Assembly (NCBI RefSeq): GCF_003334305.1
Contig: NZ_QOWS01000049.1
From: Escherichia coli
Lineage (GTDB): Bacteria; Pseudomonadota; Gammaproteobacteria; Enterobacterales; Enterobacteriaceae
DNA: 6,386 nt
Reading direction: 5' to 3' (one strand)
Below the pieces are notes generated by a model that had not been told where the DNA came from, ran no database searches, and was given only the letters and a program-made list of their open reading frames with translations. Each line of letters starts with the position of its first letter. The stretch's first letter is position 1. A program made the position numbers and the translations under genes. Shown here piece after piece: positions 1 to 6,386 of this stretch.

Positions 1-62
1 AATCGGTGGAGCTGCATGACAAAGTCATCGGGCATTATCTGAACATAAAACACTATCAATAA
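1..62 (+). CDS. insB: IS1 transposase InsB, C-terminal fragment (5' part lies outside the window)
   Basis: The frame starting at nt 3 reads SVELHDKVIGHYLNIKHYQ followed by TAA at 60-62, which matches the InsB C-terminus as I recall it. Confidence 0.7.
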   Translation, partial: SVELHDKVIGHYLNIKHYQ

Positions 63-77
63 GTTGGAGTCATTACC
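1..77 (+). mobile_element. IS1 insertion sequence, right end only (element continues upstream of the window)
   Basis: Nt 1-77 match, from my memory of IS1, the last ~77 bp of the element in canonical orientation (AATCGGTGGAGCTGCATGACAAAGTCATCGGGCATTATCTGAACATAAAACACTATCAATAAGTTGGAGTCATTACC), ending with the right terminal inverted repeat at 55-77. Not verified by search. Confidence 0.85.
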
Positions 78-735
78 GTGCACGGTAACGGGCCATATCA
101 ATGAGCAGTTCCTCTCCAATTTTATTTGCCCCTAGAGAGCGGCGAGTTTTCTTCACTTCAATGACAATCTTCTCTTTCTTCAGAAGAAAATCCTGTCTGG
201 ATGATGAACCTGCGAAGCTAGGTGAATTTTCTTCAGGTCTGACATCATTAAAATGCAGCAGCAGAAGAGCATGAACAAGATCCTGTACATCATACTCGTC
301 ATTAATTTCAAGCGGCGTTCTGTCATTGTATCGTTGCTTTAATTGACGACAAAAAGCTGGAAATTTATTGAGTATATTTATAATCAAATCCAGTTCGGCA
401 TGTTTTGTTGCTATAGTCGATGCCGTGCCGGAGTAAGTTAAATCGTCTCTGGCTGCATCAAAAATAGGTTTGTAATGTCTAACCAATCCCTGATAATTAC
501 TAGACCAAGCAATCCTTTGTGTATCATTAAAATCTTTGTAGTAATCAGATTCCTTTCCATAACTGTCTTCAAGTAACTTTTTTGCTCTTGCAATCCAGTT
601 ATTACCTTTAGCCGAATCAATATATTCCTGGCTTCTGTGACTAAATGCACTTGTTCCCATATATTTTGTCGACATGACAGAATTGTACTCTTGTTCAAGC
701 ACTTCAAATCTTTCAGCTAAGGTCTTCTTCGTCAT
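73..735 (-). CDS. Hypothetical protein with a C-terminal PD-(D/E)xK-like nuclease motif; 3' end created by the IS1 junction, so probably truncated
   Basis: ORF track frame 73..747 (-). Position 747 is a TTG; the first ATG is at 735 (MTKKTLAERFE...), giving about 220 aa. The C-terminal region reads EYDVQDLVHALLLLHF ... SSSRQDFLLKKEKIVIEVKK: an acidic helix, a D in a hydrophobic strand, then E-V-K 11 residues later, the arrangement expected for a PD-(D/E)xK core (motif-level inference only). The last sense codon and the TAA stop (73-75) overlap the IS1 terminus, which ends at 77. Confidence 0.55.
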   Translation of the reverse strand: MTKKTLAERFEVLEQEYNSVMSTKYMGTSAFSHRSQEYIDSAKGNNWIARAKKLLEDSYGKESDYYKDFNDTQRIAWSSNYQGLVRHYKPIFDAARDDLTYSGTASTIATKHAELDLIINILNKFPAFCRQLKQRYNDRTPLEINDEYDVQDLVHALLLLHFNDVRPEENSPSFAGSSSRQDFLLKKEKIVIEVKKTRRSLGANKIGEELLIDMARYRAR

Positions 736-811
736 AGCGCAATCCAAATTATATGCTAATAATACCTGTGAATTTTAATATTCTACCATATCTGGCTTTC
801 TTCCGTTCACA

Positions 812-837
812 TTGGACATTCAGGTAATTTCGTCCAG
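812..837. repeat. Dyad-symmetric motif copy 1 (TTGGACATTCAGGTAATTTCGTCCAG)
   Basis: Inverted repeat TGGAC (813-817) / GTCCA (832-836) around a 14-bp spacer. It is homologous to the copies at 1710, 2259 and 5447. It lies in the divergent promoter region between the 73..735 ORF and the 905..1099 ORF. Confidence 0.6.
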
Positions 838-863
838 TTCTGCTGGCTGTGCTGGAGCTAGCC

Positions 864-872
864 TGGTATAAT
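864..872 (+). promoter_or_regulatory. Candidate sigma70 promoter, extended -10 (TGgTATAAT)
   Basis: TG at 864-865 and consensus TATAAT at 867-872; the -35 region is poor. It sits about 33 nt upstream of the ATG at 905, and GGTGG at 894-898 could serve as the ribosome-binding site. Confidence 0.45.
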
Positions 873-904
873 TTAACCAGCCATTTCAACAGCGGTGGTG
901 TCTT

Positions 905-1099
905 ATGAACGTCAAGAACATGTTTTACGGTGCCATTCTGGTAAGTGCTGTATGGGCGGTTATTTTGCTCTCATGGTTTGAATCCAGCCTTACCTTAAGC
1001 GATTACCTCAGGTACGAATCGGTAATCCTGATCCCATGCCTGCTGTGGGTTGCTGTTTATGGGTTAGGTAAACGTTACCTCCAAAGAACATCAAACTAG
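905..1099 (+). CDS. Small hypothetical membrane protein (64 aa, two predicted TM helices)
   Basis: ORF track frame. It has two hydrophobic stretches (FYGAILVSAVWAVILLSWF and VILIPCLLWVAVYGL) and a basic C-terminus, and is preceded by the extended -10 promoter and a GGTGG Shine-Dalgarno-like sequence. Confidence 0.5.
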   Translation: MNVKNMFYGAILVSAVWAVILLSWFESSLTLSDYLRYESVILIPCLLWVAVYGLGKRYLQRTSN

Positions 1100-1131
1100 C
1101 CGCGCCAGCGACTTTTTTTACACCTTCGTTT

Positions 1132-1164
1132 AATTCCCTGGCTCACCTGGACAGCCAGGGAATT
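1132..1164. terminator. Perfect 12-bp stem / 9-nt loop hairpin between convergent ORFs; possible bidirectional terminator or RNA stability element (no U tract)
   Basis: AATTCCCTGGCT (1132-1143) pairs perfectly with AGCCAGGGAATT (1153-1164). The loop CACCTGGAC carries the CACCTGGACA core seen in the dyad repeats. No clear U run follows on either strand, so the terminator call is weak. Confidence 0.35.
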
Positions 1165-1174
1165 CTGCCCAGCG

Positions 1175-1654
1175 CTACTGGCTTGCTGTGCCAAACTTTC
1201 CGTTGCAGATTTCCTCATTCACAATGGCCTGAAACATGGAAACAGAATTTCTAGCCTTATCCCTCAGTGCATTAATGAGTTCTGTGTCGTGTATTTTGTT
1301 GTAGAAAATGAAAGTAGAAACATCAAACTGGAGTTTAAATGCTGCTTTCCTTATGGCTAAACCTGACGTGATCGTTATCTCATTATGTATGCGAAGATAG
1401 GCAAGATAATCATCGTTATTTGCTTCACACTGCTCATATAAATATTTTTGCATGAGAGATTGAGACAAGGCCAGAAATTCCACATATCGTTTGGTTTTTA
1501 TTTCTTTATCTTTTAATCCCTGTACTGCCGCTTCTTTTTTTAATTCGTGCTTTTGTGTTAGCTTAAGAGTCAGCCACCCCCCTAAAATAGTCAGCAACGA
1601 CCCCAAACCTATTTTTACGGCATTATCAGCCACATCCACCCACTCAGTCGCCAT
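1175..1654 (-). CDS. Hypothetical protein with an N-terminal membrane anchor (159 aa)
   Basis: ORF track frame. It has one N-terminal hydrophobic helix (VKIGLGSLLTILGGWLTLKL) followed by a charged, probably helical soluble region. No family recognised. Confidence 0.5.
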   Translation of the reverse strand: MATEWVDVADNAVKIGLGSLLTILGGWLTLKLTQKHELKKEAAVQGLKDKEIKTKRYVEFLALSQSLMQKYLYEQCEANNDDYLAYLRIHNEITITSGLAIRKAAFKLQFDVSTFIFYNKIHDTELINALRDKARNSVSMFQAIVNEEICNGKFGTASQ

Positions 1655-1692
1655 CTGTTACTCGTTCTTCCTGTGATGATCATGGTTGCCAG

Positions 1693-1698
1693 TATAAT
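1693..1698 (+). promoter_or_regulatory. Candidate -10 hexamer (TATAAT) for the 1772..2221 ORF
   Basis: Consensus TATAAT at 1693-1698 in the 117-bp divergent intergenic region. The -35 is poor. The dyad motif at 1710-1735 would overlap the predicted transcription start. Confidence 0.3.
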
Positions 1699-1709
1699 TC
1701 CAGCACAGA

Positions 1710-1735
1710 CTGGACGTACAGCATTTTCTGTCCAG
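1710..1735. repeat. Dyad-symmetric motif copy 2 (CTGGACGTACAGCATTTTCTGTCCAG)
   Basis: Perfect inverted repeat CTGGAC (1710-1715) / GTCCAG (1730-1735) with a 14-bp spacer. It matches the copy at 5447-5472 at about 22 of 26 positions. It sits just downstream of the candidate -10 for the 1772..2221 ORF. Confidence 0.6.
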
Positions 1736-1771
1736 TAGACAGACTGTTACACTCAGGATAGGATAGCTTCT

Positions 1772-2221
1772 ATGGTTAAATTTCCAGGTGAAGTTATGAG
1801 TTCGTCCGCTGCTGTAACCGTTATAACTGGTGTTCTTGTTTTTGTTGGTGGTCAGCTCATTGTAAAGAGCGCGATTGAACCTTATATAGAATTCAAGAAA
1901 CAATTGGGAAAAATATCAAATCTGCTATTAGCTAACCAAGCTAAATTAGCTAATCCTTGTGCTGTTGAAATGTCTGAGATCATCCATGAGTTGAAAGATG
2001 CCGCAGCTCAGTTAATGTCGAAGCATTCAGCTTTGCCTTTCTATATCAAAAAATTCCATATCGGATTCCGCTTTGTTCCATCAACGCCTGAAATTATTAG
2101 TTCGGCGCAAAAATTGAATTTGATAGCATCAATACATGAAGGTAAAAGCAAGGAAAGTACATATGAGCACATAGCCGAGATTGGACGTATGCTCAAAATC
2201 CCAACCACCTATTCTCTTTAA
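1772..2221 (+). CDS. Hypothetical protein with an N-terminal membrane anchor (149 aa)
   Basis: ORF track frame. It has an N-terminal hydrophobic helix (AAVTVITGVLVFVGGQLIV) and a soluble C-terminal region. An alternative start at the ATG at 1796 is preceded by AGGTGA. It is followed by the bidirectional terminator at 2278-2304. Confidence 0.5.
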   Translation: MVKFPGEVMSSSAAVTVITGVLVFVGGQLIVKSAIEPYIEFKKQLGKISNLLLANQAKLANPCAVEMSEIIHELKDAAAQLMSKHSALPFYIKKFHIGFRFVPSTPEIISSAQKLNLIASIHEGKSKESTYEHIAEIGRMLKIPTTYSL

Positions 2222-2258
2222 TCTTCACGCCGATCAGATTACATAATCCACGCGCCAC

Positions 2259-2284
2259 CTGGACATTCAGGTAAAAAAGTCCAA
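2259..2284. repeat. Dyad-symmetric motif copy 3 (CTGGACATTCAGGTAAAAAAGTCCAA), fused to the terminator stem
   Basis: TGGAC (2260-2264) / GTCCA (2279-2283). The right half-site is also the 5' arm of the terminator hairpin at 2278-2304. Confidence 0.55.
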
Positions 2285-2358
2285 CTGGTGAGGTTGGGCT
2301 TTTTGGCTTTCCGGTTCTGTTGGTGGCTATGACCGGAGAAAATTGCTCTACACCTAAC
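2273..2358 (-). ncRNA. Candidate small RNA, orphan paralog of the antisense RNA at 4727..4814
   Basis: Homologous to 4727-4814 along its length: the same terminator architecture, the same internal hairpin (TCCGGT ... ACCGGA), and a conserved -10 (TAAAAT on the minus strand, plus-strand 2365-2370). The predicted 5' seed is different (GUAGAGCAAUUUUCUCC versus GUAGAGUGACUUCCUCC). No adjacent toxin gene, and no target found in the window. Confidence 0.4.
2278..2304. terminator. Bidirectional rho-independent terminator (A-tract / 8-bp stem / 7-nt loop / T-tract)
   Basis: AGTCCAAC (2278-2285) pairs with GTTGGGCT (2293-2300), with one G-U pair. The loop is TGGTGAG. A5 lies upstream and T5 downstream, so it reads as stem plus U-tract on both strands. 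It serves the 1772..2221 ORF on the plus strand and the sRNA candidate on the minus strand. Confidence 0.6.
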
Positions 2359-2393
2359 GCTTACATTTTATTTACAGCGTTTGATATCTTCCT

Positions 2394-2429
2394 CGCCTTT
2401 AACGCCTTTAACGCCTTTAACGCCTTTAA
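2394..2429. repeat. Perfect tandem repeat, 4 copies of the 9-bp unit CGCCTTTAA
   Basis: Direct reading: the unit CGCCTTTAA occurs at 2394, 2403, 2412 and 2421, followed by G6. It occupies the -35/upstream position of the sRNA candidate promoter at 2365-2370. Confidence 0.9.
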
Positions 2430-2798
2430 GGGGGGAAGATAGAGCAACTCACCGATGATGAATAAAGTGGACGAAGAGACGATAACTACACTCCCATCCA
2501 GGGGGGGGCTTTTTTTGTGGTACTGTAGTGTGGGAGTAAGTTCGGGTCTCATATTGAATGAGGCGATTGCGAGCTGCCTTTCATCGAAAACTAATGTCCA
2601 TTGTCATTGTATTGTCTGACTCTATCTCGTAACAAGTCTTTGACACAAAGTTTTATATTTTTATCAAAGTGGACATGAGGGGAATTAAATTTGTGATCTT
2701 TTTCAAATAATGTGTTCTTGATAGTAGATTCTGGTTAGTGATATCTATTAACAATATATTAAATTTCTTTTGTATTATCGCTGATAAAACTACTGTAT

Positions 2799-2807
2799 TG
2801 GTATACT
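2799..2807 (+). promoter_or_regulatory. Candidate extended -10 promoter (TGgTATACT) for the 500-aa ORF
   Basis: TG at 2799-2800 and TATACT at 2802-2807, inside a very AT-rich ~280-bp upstream region. A second candidate is TTGACA at 2640-2645. The ribosome-binding site AGGAG is at 2825-2829, 8 nt before the ATG at 2838. Confidence 0.4.
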
Positions 2808-2837
2808 ATATATTATTGAGTAACAGGAGATATCACT

Positions 2838-4340
2838 ATGAAGAAATTTTATCAATTTAGGGATGAACAGCGAAAGGAGCTTGAACAACATGATTTTTAT
2901 AGTTTGATTTCTTCAGATTGTATAGCGTTGAAAGACAAACTATTATTTGCTCCTGTTATGGCTCATTTCATAATGAACTTCAGAGACATGAATAAATGGG
3001 TTATCAGGTTTGATAACAATGATAATGAATATAAATCTGTTATAAACGGTGGAACAATCGAGGATGAAACACATTCAAGATTGTTTCTGGAAGACTGGAG
3101 GAAACTATATATAGATGACAAACTTAACTGGAAAGCAAGTGATGTTATATACTGGTTGTTTATTAGTCGAGAAATGGAGTGTTTCCGAAAATTTGGTATT
3201 GATTTTATGAGACTTTGTGTAGATGATGGAGGAGACCCAATACTTCGATATTCTCACTCCGAGTCAGGAGAAACTTGCGGTAATATATTCTTTTCAAGAA
3301 TTAGTCCTATTGCTGATCAAGTTGCCAATCATTTGGGAATATCACTCCGTTATTTTGGAACATTTCACCTTAATCTTGAAAATGGACATGTATGGAAGTC
3401 AGAAGGTGTTTTTGAAAATATAGAGTTGTCACCAGATTCTTATAAGAAAATGGCTACTCTATCAAAGAGAATGTTTGATATATTTGAAGGAATTCATGAC
3501 TCTTTTTATAATTACCTGTCCAGTTATGTTCTTAATGGAAGTCATCCGTCATTTTTTGAATCATTACCTGTAGGGAAAAATGTTGCACCTATATACCCTG
3601 AATTTGTGATAGAAAACAAAAGCCATAACGATGGTAGACATATTGAACATATAAACAATTACCTGGAAAAAATATCGAGTCATGAGTTCTTTAAATGGCT
3701 GGTTAACACCTCAATAGACCCTCAATTGAAATTGAAAAGTTTCATACCTCTTTGGATTGTTGATATTATGGGGTATAGAGATATTAATAAATATGTTTTT
3801 ACATATGAACAGCCTGAATCAGAAAGTGAAAAGATTATAAATGATTATGCATTACACTTGTCAGAGCATAGCCGTTTATTTTATCATGACTGGAAGTCAC
3901 TTCAACTTGATGATATGTTACGTTGGAGTGCCAGTGATACTCTTGAGTTTATTTTTCTTAATTCAGATATGGATATGCATAGAGAAAATATAGTTAAGTT
4001 TTCTTTGTTCGGATTAAAACACAGAGATCCTGTTATCAGGTTCTGGTTTATGATGATACTGGAGTTAAGTGGAAAAGAATTTTTCTCTCATGTTGGAGAT
4101 ATAGCTTTACAGGTGGAAAGTAAATATAATATTTATCTCCCATATTTATGTGGACGCCATGCAACAGAAAATGAGCATGAAGCATATAATAATATGTATG
4201 AGCATTTTATGGTAAAGGAACTTAGCCCTGAACAAAGTGATCTAATAATACAAATTACAGACATGGTTATGCGGTCATTATTGAATAATTTGGATATCTC
4301 ATATCGATATGTAGTAAATAATTTATTGGCAGCTCGTTAG
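2838..4340 (+). CDS. Hypothetical 500-aa protein made of two homologous ~220-aa halves; function unknown
   Basis: Long ORF with a strong AGGAG Shine-Dalgarno site, its own AT-rich promoter region and its own terminator. The two halves share ETHSRLFLEDWRKLYIDDKLNWKASD versus EHSRLFYHDWKSLQLDDMLRWSASD, FRDMNKWV versus YRDINKYV, and a later ELSP motif. No signal peptide or TM helix is apparent. Codon usage is strongly AT-biased compared with the flanking sequence. Confidence 0.8.
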   Translation: MKKFYQFRDEQRKELEQHDFYSLISSDCIALKDKLLFAPVMAHFIMNFRDMNKWVIRFDNNDNEYKSVINGGTIEDETHSRLFLEDWRKLYIDDKLNWKASDVIYWLFISREMECFRKFGIDFMRLCVDDGGDPILRYSHSESGETCGNIFFSRISPIADQVANHLGISLRYFGTFHLNLENGHVWKSEGVFENIELSPDSYKKMATLSKRMFDIFEGIHDSFYNYLSSYVLNGSHPSFFESLPVGKNVAPIYPEFVIENKSHNDGRHIEHINNYLEKISSHEFFKWLVNTSIDPQLKLKSFIPLWIVDIMGYRDINKYVFTYEQPESESEKIINDYALHLSEHSRLFYHDWKSLQLDDMLRWSASDTLEFIFLNSDMDMHRENIVKFSLFGLKHRDPVIRFWFMMILELSGKEFFSHVGDIALQVESKYNIYLPYLCGRHATENEHEAYNNMYEHFMVKELSPEQSDLIIQITDMVMRSLLNNLDISYRYVVNNLLAAR

Positions 4341-4374
4341 AAGAACAGCATTGGTATGACTCTGATGCTCCTTA

Positions 4375-4404
4375 AAATCCCACTTTTCAGAGTGGGATTT
4401 GTTT
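4375..4404 (+). terminator. Rho-independent terminator of the 500-aa ORF
   Basis: Perfect 10-bp stem AAATCCCACT (4375-4384) / AGTGGGATTT (4391-4400), loop TTTCAG, followed by GTTTAAT. It lies 35 nt after the TAG stop at 4338-4340. Confidence 0.65.
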
Positions 4405-4504
4405 AATGCCCAGAACAGGGGGAATTTCCATTCATGCCCAAAAAATATTTTGATGTCCTCTCGCCAATTCTCGCGCTCAGTCCTTCCTGAAAAACCTCAG
4501 AATT

Positions 4505-4645
4505 CACGTAGCGCATCGCCGCTACTGCATCCATCAAAAAAAATGACAGCTTTTTTAATCATCTTGTGTTACTCAACTTACTGAAAAATGTGATTTATGA
4601 AAATGCCGCCGTCGGCATCAAGCAGTTGGCCAGCGCAACCGGCTG
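4505..4645. repeat. Repeat block U, copy A (about 140-bp core; homologous to 5765-5905)
   Basis: Shared anchors, by eye about 75% identity: TTCACGTAGCG, TACTG-ATCCATCAA, AATGAC, CTACTGAAAAAT, GGC-ACAGCATC. The reading frames are not conserved between the two copies, so it is probably non-coding. Confidence 0.55.
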
Positions 4646-4726
4646 CATCGACCGCAACAAAAAAACTGAAAGAGAAAGCCCCTCAAATGAGGGAGAAAAA
4701 AAGGAAGTGCAGTCAACGAGAGGCGT

Positions 4727-4814
4727 AAAAAACCCGACTGGTGAGGTCGGGTTTTAATACGGTTCCGGTTCTGAGTTGGTGGCTCTGACCGGAGGAAGTC
4801 ACTCTACACCTAAC
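4727..4814 (-). ncRNA. Candidate antisense small RNA (type I antitoxin-like), divergent from the 31-aa peptide gene
   Basis: Minus-strand promoter: TTGCAA (4844-4849), 17-bp spacer, TAAAAT (plus-strand 4821-4826). The predicted start is near 4814. The terminator is stem CCCGAC (4733-4738) / GTCGGG (4746-4751) with loop TGGTGAG and a U6 run on the minus strand. The first 24 nt (complement of 4791-4814) pair with plus-strand 5026-5049 in the peptide mRNA leader (23 Watson-Crick pairs plus one G-U). Confidence 0.5.
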
Positions 4815-4820
4815 GTTTAC

Positions 4821-4849
4821 ATTTTATGCACTCAGCCGCAGTATTGCAA
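4821..4849 (-). promoter_or_regulatory. Candidate sigma70 promoter of the antisense RNA (-35 TTGCAA, -10 TAAAAT, 17-bp spacer)
   Basis: Read on the minus strand: TTGCAA, then TACTGCGGCTGAGTGCA, then TAAAAT. Confidence 0.45.
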
Positions 4850-4903
4850 CTAACTGTGGTTAAGGCACCACATTTAGTTGTGTATCGTGGGTTTTATATA
4901 CCT

Positions 4904-4909
4904 TATAAT
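4904..4909 (+). promoter_or_regulatory. Candidate -10 (TATAAT) for the peptide mRNA, implying a leader of about 210 nt
   Basis: Consensus TATAAT at 4904-4909 with an AT-rich upstream region; the -35 is poor. It is divergent from the antisense RNA promoter, about 55 bp away. Confidence 0.3.
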
Positions 4910-5025
4910 CATGAAGTTAGCCGTGTGGTGTGGCTTCTTCCTCTGCCCTTCCCGTTTATGCAGGTATGAACGATTTTAAAGTCCTGGCTGAACAAACAGG
5001 TGGTGCTGTGTTTAGTGCTCTGGCA

Positions 5026-5049
5026 GGAGGAAGTCACTCTGCACCTAAC
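5026..5049 (+). promoter_or_regulatory. Predicted antisense RNA target site in the peptide mRNA leader
   Basis: GGAGGAAGTCACTCTGCACCTAAC (5026-5049) differs at one position (A to G) from plus-strand 4791-4814, so it is complementary to the 5' end of the minus-strand RNA with one G-U wobble. Confidence 0.5.
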
Positions 5050-5102
5050 AATGCGAGAGAACCGTTGTGACAGGCAGTGTAAGAGCAAGCAACGGTGATT
5101 TC

Positions 5103-5119
5103 CTCCAGTTTTACTGGAG
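5103..5119 (+). promoter_or_regulatory. Hairpin sequestering the Shine-Dalgarno sequence of the peptide gene
   Basis: CTCCAG (5103-5108), loop TTTTA, CTGGAG (5114-5119). The SD GGAG (5116-5119) is inside the 3' arm. TTCCTCC at 5100-5106 could alternatively pair with GGAGGAA at 5026-5032. Confidence 0.4.
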
Positions 5120-5125
5120 AAACGG

Positions 5126-5221
5126 ATGATTAATCTGTTAATCATCGTTCTCAGGGCTGTGGTCGCCGTTGCAAACGCGCTGATTGCAATTCTGGAACTG
5201 ATTCGCCAGTTCATCGACTGA
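5126..5221 (+). CDS. 31-aa hydrophobic peptide, type I toxin-like (MINLLIIVLRAVVAVANALIAILELIRQFID)
   Basis: ATG at 5126 with GGAG 6 nt upstream. An in-frame stop lies upstream at 5096-5098, so this is the first possible start. The peptide has one predicted TM helix and a charged C-terminus. A near-identical paralog is at 6044..6139. It is not in the ORF track, which lists only the antisense frame 4909..5214. Confidence 0.6.
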   Translation: MINLLIIVLRAVVAVANALIAILELIRQFID

Positions 5222-5446
5222 TGACAGCGGAAACGTAACTAAGGACAGGAAGTGAACCGCTTCCTGCCCTTTAACATACTGTGATATTTTTCAAAAAAAC
5301 TCACCAATATTCTCCTCGGCAGAAATGACATAACTCACTGTAAAATAACAAATCATCTAAACGCCAGCTTTGTATTGAGCGCGTTGGCCAACGCCTTTAT
5401 CAGCTGCGACCGCACCAGATAATTTGAATAAGATTTCCCGCATCAC

Positions 5447-5472
5447 CTGGACATACAGGTTATTCTGTCCAT
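5447..5472. repeat. Dyad-symmetric motif copy 4 (CTGGACATACAGGTTATTCTGTCCAT)
   Basis: TGGACA (5449-5454) / TGTCCA (5466-5471), with an inner dyad ACCTG ... CAGGT. It lies in the spacer between the two peptide units. Confidence 0.6.
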
Positions 5473-5764
5473 ACCTCATTAGTTACAACATTCACGCGTT
5501 CTGTTCCTTTATCCGGTGCCCTGTTCCAGTATATGTGCCCATATCCTGGGTTATTCAGGATAACCGCTTCCTTTTCGCCCTGTCCTGTCGTTCATATCCC
5601 CCTGGACAAAAATGCATTATCGGAAAAAATGTCCAAAATTTTTTTGGTGATCGGAATTTTTGTTGTCGGACGCACCTCTTCTTCAGGTCATAATTGCTGA
5701 CACATCCCAAAAAACAGGAGCGGAGATTTAAAAATTGAGTCACTTACCCGCCAAAATTTTCCAG

Positions 5765-5905
5765 ATTTCACGTAGCGTACCGTCGATACTGTATCCATCA
5801 ACAAATGACTATTTTTTGAATGTGTCATTTCCTGTAACCTACTGAAAAATATCAGTGAATGACAATATCGGCGACAGCATCGGAGCTGATAGCCAGTTTC
5901 CTGAA
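5765..5905. repeat. Repeat block U, copy B (homologous to 4505-4645)
   Basis: Same anchors as copy A. It is preceded by a candidate -10 (CATAAT, 5689-5694) and followed by the hairpin at 5994-6032. Confidence 0.55.
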
Positions 5906-5993
5906 TGCATATGGCCAGAACAGTAAATTTGAACCAGGTTCTCACGTCACCAGGCGACGTGTCTGGGAAACTGGTGAACAACAGGCACAGAAA

Positions 5994-6032
5994 AGCCCAA
6001 CTTTATGGGGGTCAGTTCAGTGAGGTTGGGCT
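5994..6032. terminator. Hairpin homologous to the sRNA terminators (8-bp stem, enlarged 23-nt loop), directly upstream of the second peptide gene
   Basis: AGCCCAAC (5994-6001) pairs perfectly with GTTGGGCT (6025-6032). The loop ends in TCAGTGAG, compared with TGGTGAG in the other copies. On the plus strand, A4 lies upstream and no U tract follows. Confidence 0.45.
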
Positions 6033-6043
6033 AAGAGAAACGA

Positions 6044-6139
6044 ATGATTAACCTGTTAATCATCATTCTCAGGGATGTGGTCGCCGTTGCAAACGCGCGG
6101 ATTGCAGTTCTGGAACTGATTCGCCAGTTCATCGTTTGA
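6044..6139 (+). CDS. Second copy of the 31-aa peptide (MINLLIIILRDVVAVANARIAVLELIRQFIV), possibly degenerate
   Basis: ATG at 6044 with a weaker ribosome-binding site (AAGAG). It differs from copy 1 at 7 nt (V8I, A11D, L19R, I22V, D31V, one synonymous), and two of these put charged residues in the hydrophobic core. It lacks the sRNA, promoter and leader block present upstream of copy 1. Confidence 0.45.
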   Translation: MINLLIIILRDVVAVANARIAVLELIRQFIV

Positions 6140-6309
6140 TGACAGCGGAAACGTAACTCAGGACAGGAAGTTCCAAATAGCTCCCAGCCAGCATATGTAA
6201 TTTTCAAAGGGGCAGTTGTTAACTCTGTAATAACGCCATGTAAAGTATTCCTGCCCCCTCCATGATCCTCCATAGTATTTCTTGAGTTAATTTTCAAAAA
6301 GCTTCTGAT

Positions 6310-6386
6310 GGTGATGCTGCCAACTTACTGATTTAGTGTATGATGGTGTTTTTGAGGTGCTCCAGTGGCTTCTGTTTCTATCAGCT
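6310..6386 (+). mobile_element. IS1 insertion sequence, left end (element continues beyond the window)
   Basis: GGTGATGCTGCCAACTTACTGATTTAGTGTATGATGGTGTTTTTGAGGTGCTCCAGTGGCTTCTGTTTCTATCAGCT matches the IS1 left inverted repeat and the insA 5' region as I recall them. It is in the same orientation as the IS1 fragment at 1-77. Confidence 0.9.
6365..6386 (+). CDS. insA: IS1 InsA, N-terminal fragment (GTG start; continues beyond the window)
   Basis: GTG GCT TCT GTT TCT ATC AGC translates to (M)ASVSIS, the InsA N-terminus as I recall it. Confidence 0.7.

Follow-up and report, generated by a model that had tools for sequence, protein, structure and literature searches.

A recurring 26-bp motif in Escherichia coli plasmid DNA as a probable tyrosine-recombinase core site of mobile cassette arrays

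Layout of the window

The stretch of DNA analyzed here, referred to as the window, comprises 6,386 nt of Escherichia coli contig NZ_QOWS01000049.1 and carries five copies, four of them exact, of a 26-bp dyad-symmetric motif with the form TGGAC-N14-GTCCA, which is the subject of this study. The closest complete record is pECOS88, a ColV-type IncF plasmid of E. coli S88 (133,853 bp), which is 100% identical to window positions 78–6308; the segment is also nearly complete in about 50 other E. coli genomes. It is bounded on both sides by IS1 sequence, and an inverted repeat (I4) pairs positions 55–77 with 6310–6332. The window is an array of five sites (c1 to c5) and four and a half cassettes (designated by K), as listed in Table 1.

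Table 1. Coordinates of the sites, cassettes, and other features of the window
Feature	Position	Strand	Remarks
End of IS1 copy	1–77		Truncates cassette K2 and bounds the segment; IS1A transposase genes flank the segment in pECOS88
K2, PD-(D/E)XK nuclease-domain protein, truncated by IS1	78–827	−	Intact cassette is exactly 905 bp elsewhere
Site c1, TTGGACATTCAGGTAATTTCGTCCAG	812–837	+	PD-(D/E)XK nuclease cassette (left) / 64-aa cassette (right); putative crossover after 827
K1, 335 bp	828–1162	+	64-aa membrane peptide (905–1099) with its own extended −10 promoter
Site c2, CTGGACAGCCAGGGAATTCTGCCCAG	1147–1172	+	Degenerate full copy; 64-aa / 159-aa cassette junction
K3, 563 bp	1163–1725	−	159-aa protein (1175–1654, minus strand); BLAST match H31
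Site c3, CTGGACGTACAGCATTTTCTGTCCAG	1710–1735	+	159-aa / 149-aa cassette junction
K4, 549 bp	1726–2274	+	149-aa protein (1772–2221)
Site c4, CTGGACATTCAGGTAAAAAAGTCCAA	2259–2284	+	149-aa / 3.2-kb cassette junction
K6, 3188 bp	2275–5462	+	Two AgrB-like RNAs, 9-bp repeat (×4), 500-aa ORF, dqlB copy 1
AgrB-like antisense RNAs	2271–2357 and 4725–4813	−	Rfam RF02891
Site c5, CTGGACATACAGGTTATTCTGTCCAT	5447–5472	+	Terminal, recombinase-proximal site of the array
Accessory element	5603–5670	+	Dyad TGGACA-N22-TGTCCA with TATCGGAAAAAATGTCC (5618–5634, 145 bp after the core) and 16-nt repeat TTTTTGGTGATCGGAA
Recombinase 5′ remnant, first 14 codons, LSHLPAKIFQISRS	5735–5776	+	Fused after ...CACGTAGCG to the second dqlB unit
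Start of second IS1 copy	6309–6386		Bounds the segment on the other side

Occurrence and sequence of the 26-bp motif

Exact matches to TGGAC-N14-GTCCA were found on the + strand at 813–836, 1711–1734, 2260–2283, and 5448–5471, and 0 matches were obtained in 200 dinucleotide-preserving shuffles of the window. The recurrence of the motif, which had been reported in a first-pass annotation of this DNA, is therefore real. What that annotation had described as a half-copy within the hairpin at 1132–1164 proved, by repeat finding and matrix scanning, to be a fifth full copy (c2) that is degenerate and matches the consensus at 22 of 26 positions. Pairwise identities among the four exact copies were 15–21 of 26, instead of the 19–22 given earlier. 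All five window copies share a single orientation.

Over the entire length of pECOS88, the N14-spaced copies were only these four, and a position-matrix scan of this plasmid revealed no sites beyond the segment. Likewise, no further sites were present on pTX313-2, a plasmid of 37.6 kb. Sites were gathered in two ways, by a position matrix derived from the first nine copies and by a single strict pattern. The strict pattern was found in 49 stretches among 241 million metagenome records and in 1 among viral contigs, and these few occurrences indicate that the motif is not a generic genomic repeat. The outcome that the first-pass annotation had named as refuting its reading, a motif common whatever the context, did not occur, the motif being rare and confined to these arrays. 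The loci gathered were 77 encoding recombinase relatives (from species-representative genomes), 49 metagenome stretches, and 1 viral contig, with sites called at a matrix score of at least 25 bits; individual loci are denoted by L numbers.

The logo of 101 unique sites reads YTGGACATWCAGGTNATTCTGTCCAG, with all 26 positions conserved except N15, weak conservation at positions 1, 9, and 26, and a sharp fall in conservation outside the 26 bp. An additional box, TAATTCC, was observed in these sites at −14 to −8, on the cassette side of the core. Arm positions 2–7 and 20–25 are complementary in 58–79 of 82 unique cores, which places the dyad axis between positions 13 and 14, and the asymmetric inner 12 bp are conserved about as well as the arms. 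The spacer between the arms is not arbitrary, the whole 26 bp being conserved apart from N15.

Searching Rfam gave no family for the 26-bp motif; AgrB, which belongs to the cargo, was the only match. Several known elements were rejected by inspection because their spacing or sequence did not fit, namely the LexA box, the sigma-54 promoter, the sigma-70 −35 element (TGGACA), the hix/gix invertase sites, the Tn3 res subsites, and sopC.

One possible reading of the motif is a structural element, in which RNA or single-stranded DNA would fold and act in termination, as a single-strand promoter, as an antisense target, or in the manner of attC. The hairpin at 1132–1164, which is formed by c2 and its upstream box, is strong when folded as single-stranded DNA (−13.1 kcal/mol, z = −4.1), and c4 overlaps the terminator of an AgrB-like RNA, its right half also being part of the terminator stem of this minus-strand RNA. 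The other four copies, however, fold weakly (−2.9 to −5.4 kcal/mol, z from −1.1 to −2.2), and arm changes among the 82 unique cores break the pairing and are almost never compensated; at pair 3–24, 18 were broken and 0 were compensatory. What is conserved is the sequence and not the structure, the strong hairpin is peculiar to c2, and a structural role for the motif is highly improbable. As to c2 itself, the upstream box and the core centre are complementary in this copy only (AATTCCCTGGC and GCCAGGGAATT), forming a 12-bp hairpin that may be the terminator of the 64-aa gene.

Cassette arrays and their shuffling across plasmids

Window positions 740–2320 were compared by low-stringency BLAST with all complete E. 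coli genomes. Matches in other plasmids started or stopped at motif copies (window 812/813, 1172, and 1734/1735), and matches H39 and H40 terminated at the borders of K1. Most of the matching plasmids were IncX plasmids of 30–50 kb. In these plasmids, several motif copies lie within the accessory region, which has the hns/topB side at one end and a tyrosine recombinase gene at the other; the copies are always co-oriented with this gene and are absent from the rest of the plasmid.

A total of 165 sites were called in 64 loci. In all loci with two or more sites (46/46), every site has the same orientation, and one copy occupies each inter-cassette gap however the genes are oriented, even where two 3′ ends converge or where genes are in tandem. 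The 103 inter-site segments fell into 47 discrete clusters with sharply conserved lengths (e.g., 905, 549, 560–563, and 334–339 bp). Cassettes are typically 0.3–3 kb in size and contain one to a few genes in either orientation. Within the arrays, the 905-bp nuclease cassette has three different neighbours on its left and four on its right, and the 64-, 159-, and 149-aa cassettes of the window each occur in at least two contexts. Seven plasmids with a recombinase of at least 97% identity carry seven different arrays. Identifiable cargo includes HigBA, TenpIN, AbiD, dqlB/agrB, and several PD-(D/E)XK nucleases resembling Argonaute-associated restriction endonuclease (REase) effectors; most of the remaining cargo has no recognisable identity.

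Two further observations were made on these loci. A cassette of 329–371 bp, K0, bounded by two sites, was seen 11 times (metagenome loci L097, L098, L103, L113, L128, and others). A RepFIB-type integrase 99% identical to that of pECOS88 is located approximately 3 kb away in 5 of the K0 loci, which are without the accessory element described below and represent a third genomic context for the sites. In L009 (NZ_JBUBJH010000005.1), positions 8410–19496 contain an 11-kb direct duplication of a whole replicon segment including the terminal site, which may be a dimer-like assembly or a true tandem duplication.

The first-pass annotation had favoured an operator for a dimeric co-regulator of the neighbouring genes, with a recombination site as the alternative. 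The proximity of the copies to promoters and terminators, from which it argued, is genuine, and arises because the copies lie at cassette ends. As an operator, the dyad would bind a dimeric transcription factor, or else the recombinase in the role of a repressor only, and the copies would have spread with promoter modules. Operators of dimeric repressors are likewise short dyad-symmetric sites with fixed spacing. Furthermore, c1 is upstream of an extended −10 element, c3 is between divergent genes, and the terminal copy and a second dyad are within the recombinase promoter region; for ResD of the F plasmid, repressor and resolvase functions have both been described. Nevertheless, the copies are also located immediately behind terminators and between genes that converge or are in tandem, their orientation is uniform in the 46 multi-site loci, their asymmetric inner 12 bp are conserved, and hybrid half-sites occur (see below), all of which distinguishes them from the operators of dimeric repressors. 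No regulator gene is present in the window, and an operator would leave the hybrid half-sites and the discrete cassettes of fixed length unexplained. A role of the motif as an operator is thus unsupported and quite unlikely; a secondary repressor role of the recombinase at the terminal site may exist. The recombination site, in turn, gains support from the homology blocks ending at copies, the shuffling of cassettes, and the single junction in hybrid sites.

Position of the junction in natural recombinants

For the junction analysis, cassettes were clustered at 97% identity; clustering at 80% blurred the junctions because diverged cassette families were pooled. In L009 and L089, the site TTGGACATTCAGGTAA/TTCTGTCCATACC combines the left half of c1 with the right half of c5. 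In these two loci, the nuclease cassette and the recombinase remnant are immediate neighbours, whereas 4.6 kb of cassettes separate them in the window.

Sites with a common left cassette show no differences up to and including core position 16 and diverge from position 17 onwards. With K2 as the left cassette, the left half is joined to TTCTGTCCAT, TTTCGTCCAG, ATATGTCTTG, or TTCTGTCCAA, and with K4 it is joined to AAAAGTCCAA, TTCTGTCCAT, or TTCTATCCAA. The left half of c1 was accordingly found with four different right halves at other loci, and the left half of c3, which has the variant centre GCATT, accompanies the 159-aa cassette beside three different right partners, the variant centre always staying with the left partner. 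Sites with a common right cassette showed differences only up to position 15–16. In every natural recombinant examined, the junction is a single phosphodiester, GGTNA/TT, between core positions 16 and 17.

This junction is located exactly 3 bp from the dyad axis (13/14), as expected of a tyrosine recombinase acting with an overlap of 6 bp; a serine recombinase, for which the crossover is at the central 2 bp, is excluded. Core sites of tyrosine recombinases have inverted arms around a centre of 6–8 bp and a crossover at the edge between arm and centre, 3–4 bp from the axis, and the motif, with its asymmetric conserved centre, shares these two features. Only the right-hand boundary was seen, which suggests exchange of a single strand pair, with the intermediate being resolved by replication in the manner of attC or cer.

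Shuffling might also be driven by homology, with the 26 bp and TAATTCC being boundary sequences as in lambdoid phages and RecA recombining them with no dedicated recombinase. Consistent with this, the sites provide 15–25 bp of near-identity, and many arrays have no intact neighbouring recombinase. However, crossovers mediated by homology should scatter along the region of identity, whereas all informative junctions are at 16/17, and an identity of 26 bp is a very poor substrate for RecA. Strict co-orientation of the sites, the polar accessory element, and the constant spacing of the recombinase gene (both described below) would also be left unexplained, and mosaicism through homology is considered unlikely.

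Terminal site, accessory element, and recombinase gene

An accessory element, which is present in the window behind c5 (Table 1) and in which the dyad is followed by a GATCGG repeat, was found only after the last core of an array. Its distance from this core was +144 to +146 bp in 26 loci and +80 to +83 in four. In 3 of the latter four loci, a true ResD orthologue (84–87% identical to F ResD) reads towards the site from the other side. Eight loci have an intact IncX-type recombinase gene 264–265 bp after the terminal core, and these recombinases are 96–100% identical; WP_000018884.1 of pTX313-2 is one intact example of the IncX-type enzyme. In the Citrobacter locus L010, the recombinase is only 70% identical and is located 421 bp after the terminal core, with the core and the accessory element kept. 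The recombinase-proximal module was detected in 647 PLSDB plasmids. Given the polar accessory element and the synteny with the recombinase gene, the arrays have an attI-like end.

The IncX-type recombinase shares 49% identity with F ResD over 217 aa (E = 2e-60), and the residues R...HxxR...H...Y can be read from its sequence. Its scores are far below the curated cut-offs for XerC/D and integron integrases (among the integron-integrase models, 54.5 bits against a cut-off of 265 for TIGR02249 and 38.9 against 435 for NF011946).

In the window, c5 and the approximately 290 bp after it correspond to the recombinase-upstream region of IncX plasmids; the same conserved region follows the terminal site in L004, L006, L087, L090, L102, L125, L134, and L010. 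A small ORF at 5735–5845 opens with the 14 recombinase codons and continues into the second dqlB unit. L009 and L089 share this truncation, their remnant being annotated as a partial tyrosine recombinase, and in IncX1 plasmids with the truncation, a dinQ-like gene and a serine resolvase come next. With the recombinase gene cut to 14 codons, the array in the window is an orphan, and its sites would be active only if a related recombinase were supplied in trans.

Proposed mechanism

Based on these sequence comparisons, the 26-bp motif is considered to be a tyrosine-recombinase core site bounding mobile gene cassettes, with a probability of roughly 0.78; the identity of the acting enzyme is proposed with less confidence than this. 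Each 26-bp element would be the core site of an IncX-type, plasmid-encoded tyrosine recombinase of the ResD family, with one recombinase monomer binding to each of its inverted arms, YTGGACA and TGTCCAR. Strands would be exchanged at the edge of the 6-bp central region AGGTNA (positions 11–16). The copy nearest to the recombinase gene, together with the accessory element, would act as the resident site in an attI-like role and is probably also the dimer-resolution and autoregulatory site of the plasmid. Circular cassettes with one site each would integrate at this resident site, producing co-oriented arrays of cassettes with one to a few genes. A cassette would then begin with a right half-site, followed by one or more genes under a promoter of their own, a terminator, and the TAATTCC box, and would close with a left half-site. 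The array of the window would have been brought into the ColV IncF plasmid between two IS1 copies. Reading the window as a cassette array would account for its entire layout, that is, an orphan array carried by IS1 into a ColV virulence plasmid.

Several points weigh against this interpretation. The apparent conservation of the site is inflated, because sites were collected with the nine-copy matrix and one strict pattern. Members of a single cassette family sometimes differ at positions 1, 9, and 15; the junction call therefore depends on the distinctive variants of K3 (GCATT), K6 (AAAAGT), K37 (ATATGT), and K1 (TTTCGT). The recombinase is assigned to the site from conserved synteny, and many arrays, including that of the window, are without an intact IncX-type recombinase. 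Some arrays adjoin a true ResD orthologue, which is oppositely oriented and has its 3′ end next to the array, and some are approximately 3 kb from a RepFIB-type integrase; with the recombinase contexts so varied, the acting enzyme may differ between them. Finally, no position-matrix match was found in the resD regions of F and R64, and the rfsF common to these two plasmids has a different sequence, so that site recognition is not transferable from ResD by homology alone.

Relation to ResD/rfsF

ResD and rfsF constitute a plasmid site-specific recombination system, and rfsF is known as a switch point between gene sets in IncI1 and IncR plasmids (PMC8004404, PMC9412624). The arrays resemble the ResD/rfsF multimer-resolution systems of F, R64, and IncR plasmids in the recombinase family and in having a site upstream of the recombinase's own gene. 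They differ in that rfsF is described as a single site, whereas the arrays have many sites bounding cassettes.

A partial match, AGGTTGTTCTGTCCA, downstream of F resD (L007, ~4970–4995) was initially taken as rfsF. This identity was dropped, as comparison of F with R64, the ResD proteins of which are 94% identical to each other, puts the classical rfsF upstream of the ccd/resD operon and with another sequence. The motif is therefore not rfsF itself; the clade of the ResD family to which it would belong is a different one. Near ResD-family genes in general, a relaxed match to the right half was found within 1.5 kb in only 9 of 58 loci, several of these matches being chance-like.

Two traces were observed in the F and R64 plasmids. 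In F (L007, 4970–5015), AGGTTGTTCTGTCCA equals the right half of the motif and lies approximately 300 bp after resD, in the same inverted position as the full sites or arrays beside the ResD orthologues from Hafnia, Klebsiella, and metagenomes; it has the appearance of an array of this kind that has decayed. Upstream of the resD operons, the homology between F and R64 stops right after CGGTAATT (L007, ~3150–3170; L141, ~2840–2860; alignment A1, columns 395–415). This sequence has the GGTAATT of the motif centre and junction, which hints at a crossover sequence common to the ResD family.

Comparison with integrons and pdif modules

Functionally, the system is closest to the integron and to the pdif modules of Acinetobacter plasmids and is a member of neither. 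As in integrons (IntI, attI, attC), a tyrosine recombinase gene is located beside a special primary site, an array of co-oriented sites separates small cassettes, the cassette-borne site is at one end of the cassette, and the junction is at one exact position. Toxin-antitoxin and phage-defence cargo, here HigBA, TenpIN, dqlB/agrB, and AbiD, is also found in sedentary chromosomal integrons. In contrast to integrons, the recombinase is not IntI, as judged from the integrase score given above; the core is a short, sequence-conserved duplex-type site of 26 bp and not a long, structure-conserved attC hairpin; the cassette genes are in both orientations with their own promoters; and the recombinase gene reads away from the array on the same strand.

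In Acinetobacter plasmids, discrete pdif modules are bounded by XerC/XerD sites (PMC5790767). Both systems have toxin-antitoxin or accessory modules that are bounded by short core sites of the tyrosine-recombinase type and shuffled between plasmids. Unlike pdif sites, all sites in the arrays described here are direct repeats, and a plasmid-encoded recombinase gene is at the array end. The pdif sites follow the 11-6-11 consensus of dif, are used by the host XerCD, and alternate in orientation. No match to E. coli dif was found in the window at up to 3 mismatches, and the motif consensus is unrelated to dif by inspection. A literature search, which covered few subscription journals, found no description of the site or of the cassette arrays, and a prior description is possible.

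Cargo of the window cassettes

The K2 protein (window ORF 73–747, minus strand) matched the PADLOC model Aga_Helical-REase (E = 4e-23), an Argonaute-associated effector type; intact copies of K2 are present in L009 (7557–8348) and L087 (6205–6996). Three diverged versions of the nuclease cassette (K2, K9, and K30) are in circulation, and its protein is labelled "malate dehydrogenase" or "peptidase M14" in some records. The 64-, 159-, and 149-aa proteins had no match in NCBIfam, PADLOC, or Pfam. The 500-aa ORF of K6 (2838–4340), located between the two AgrB-like RNAs, has a GC content of 31–35%, compared with 42–48% in its flanks; for the encoded protein, no NCBIfam or PADLOC match was found and the Pfam match was insignificant.

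The two AgrB-like RNAs scored 64 and 46 bits against RF02891 (gathering score 40), the lower score being that of the RNA at 2271–2357. The gene dqlB, encoding a DinQ-like type I toxin, is annotated twice, with copy 1 at 5126–5221. An AgrB RNA above the gathering score thus adjoins a DinQ-like peptide gene, as expected for a type I toxin-antitoxin system of the dinQ/agrB type, and a recent study demonstrated that dqlB/agrB works as a plasmid toxin-antitoxin system (PMC12317039). The RNA at 2271–2357 has no adjoining dqlB; it opens the 3.2-kb cassette, and the right half of c4 is supplied by its terminator. Just downstream of this orphan RNA, a perfect 9-bp tandem repeat (CGCCTTTAA, four copies, 2394–2429) was observed, followed by a terminator-like hairpin with a G-run at 2491–2508. 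Both dqlB units open with an identical, recombinase-derived 16 nt (CAGAWTTCACGTAGCG; window 4498–4541 and 5762–5805). Unit 1 therefore seems to have arisen as a second copy of the junction at which the recombinase remnant meets dqlB.

Implications for plasmid gene exchange

It is an even chance that IncX and related enterobacterial plasmids have an unrecognised platform for cassette capture, composed of the recombinase, the resident site with its accessory element, and the arrays, by which plasmids would swap self-expressed cassettes with toxin-antitoxin, defence, or unassigned functions; such a platform would be an analogue of the integron arising from a dimer-resolution system. If true, plasmids of E. 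coli, Salmonella, and Klebsiella would have a second, unannotated route of modular gene exchange besides integrons and transposons, which would explain how AbiD, TenpIN, HigBA, dqlB/agrB, and PD-(D/E)XK nucleases hop from plasmid to plasmid. From the site positions, dozens of small unknown genes could be delimited by a simple rule and mined as candidates for defence or addiction functions. The arrays would also show a route by which a dimer-resolution system becomes a cassette platform.

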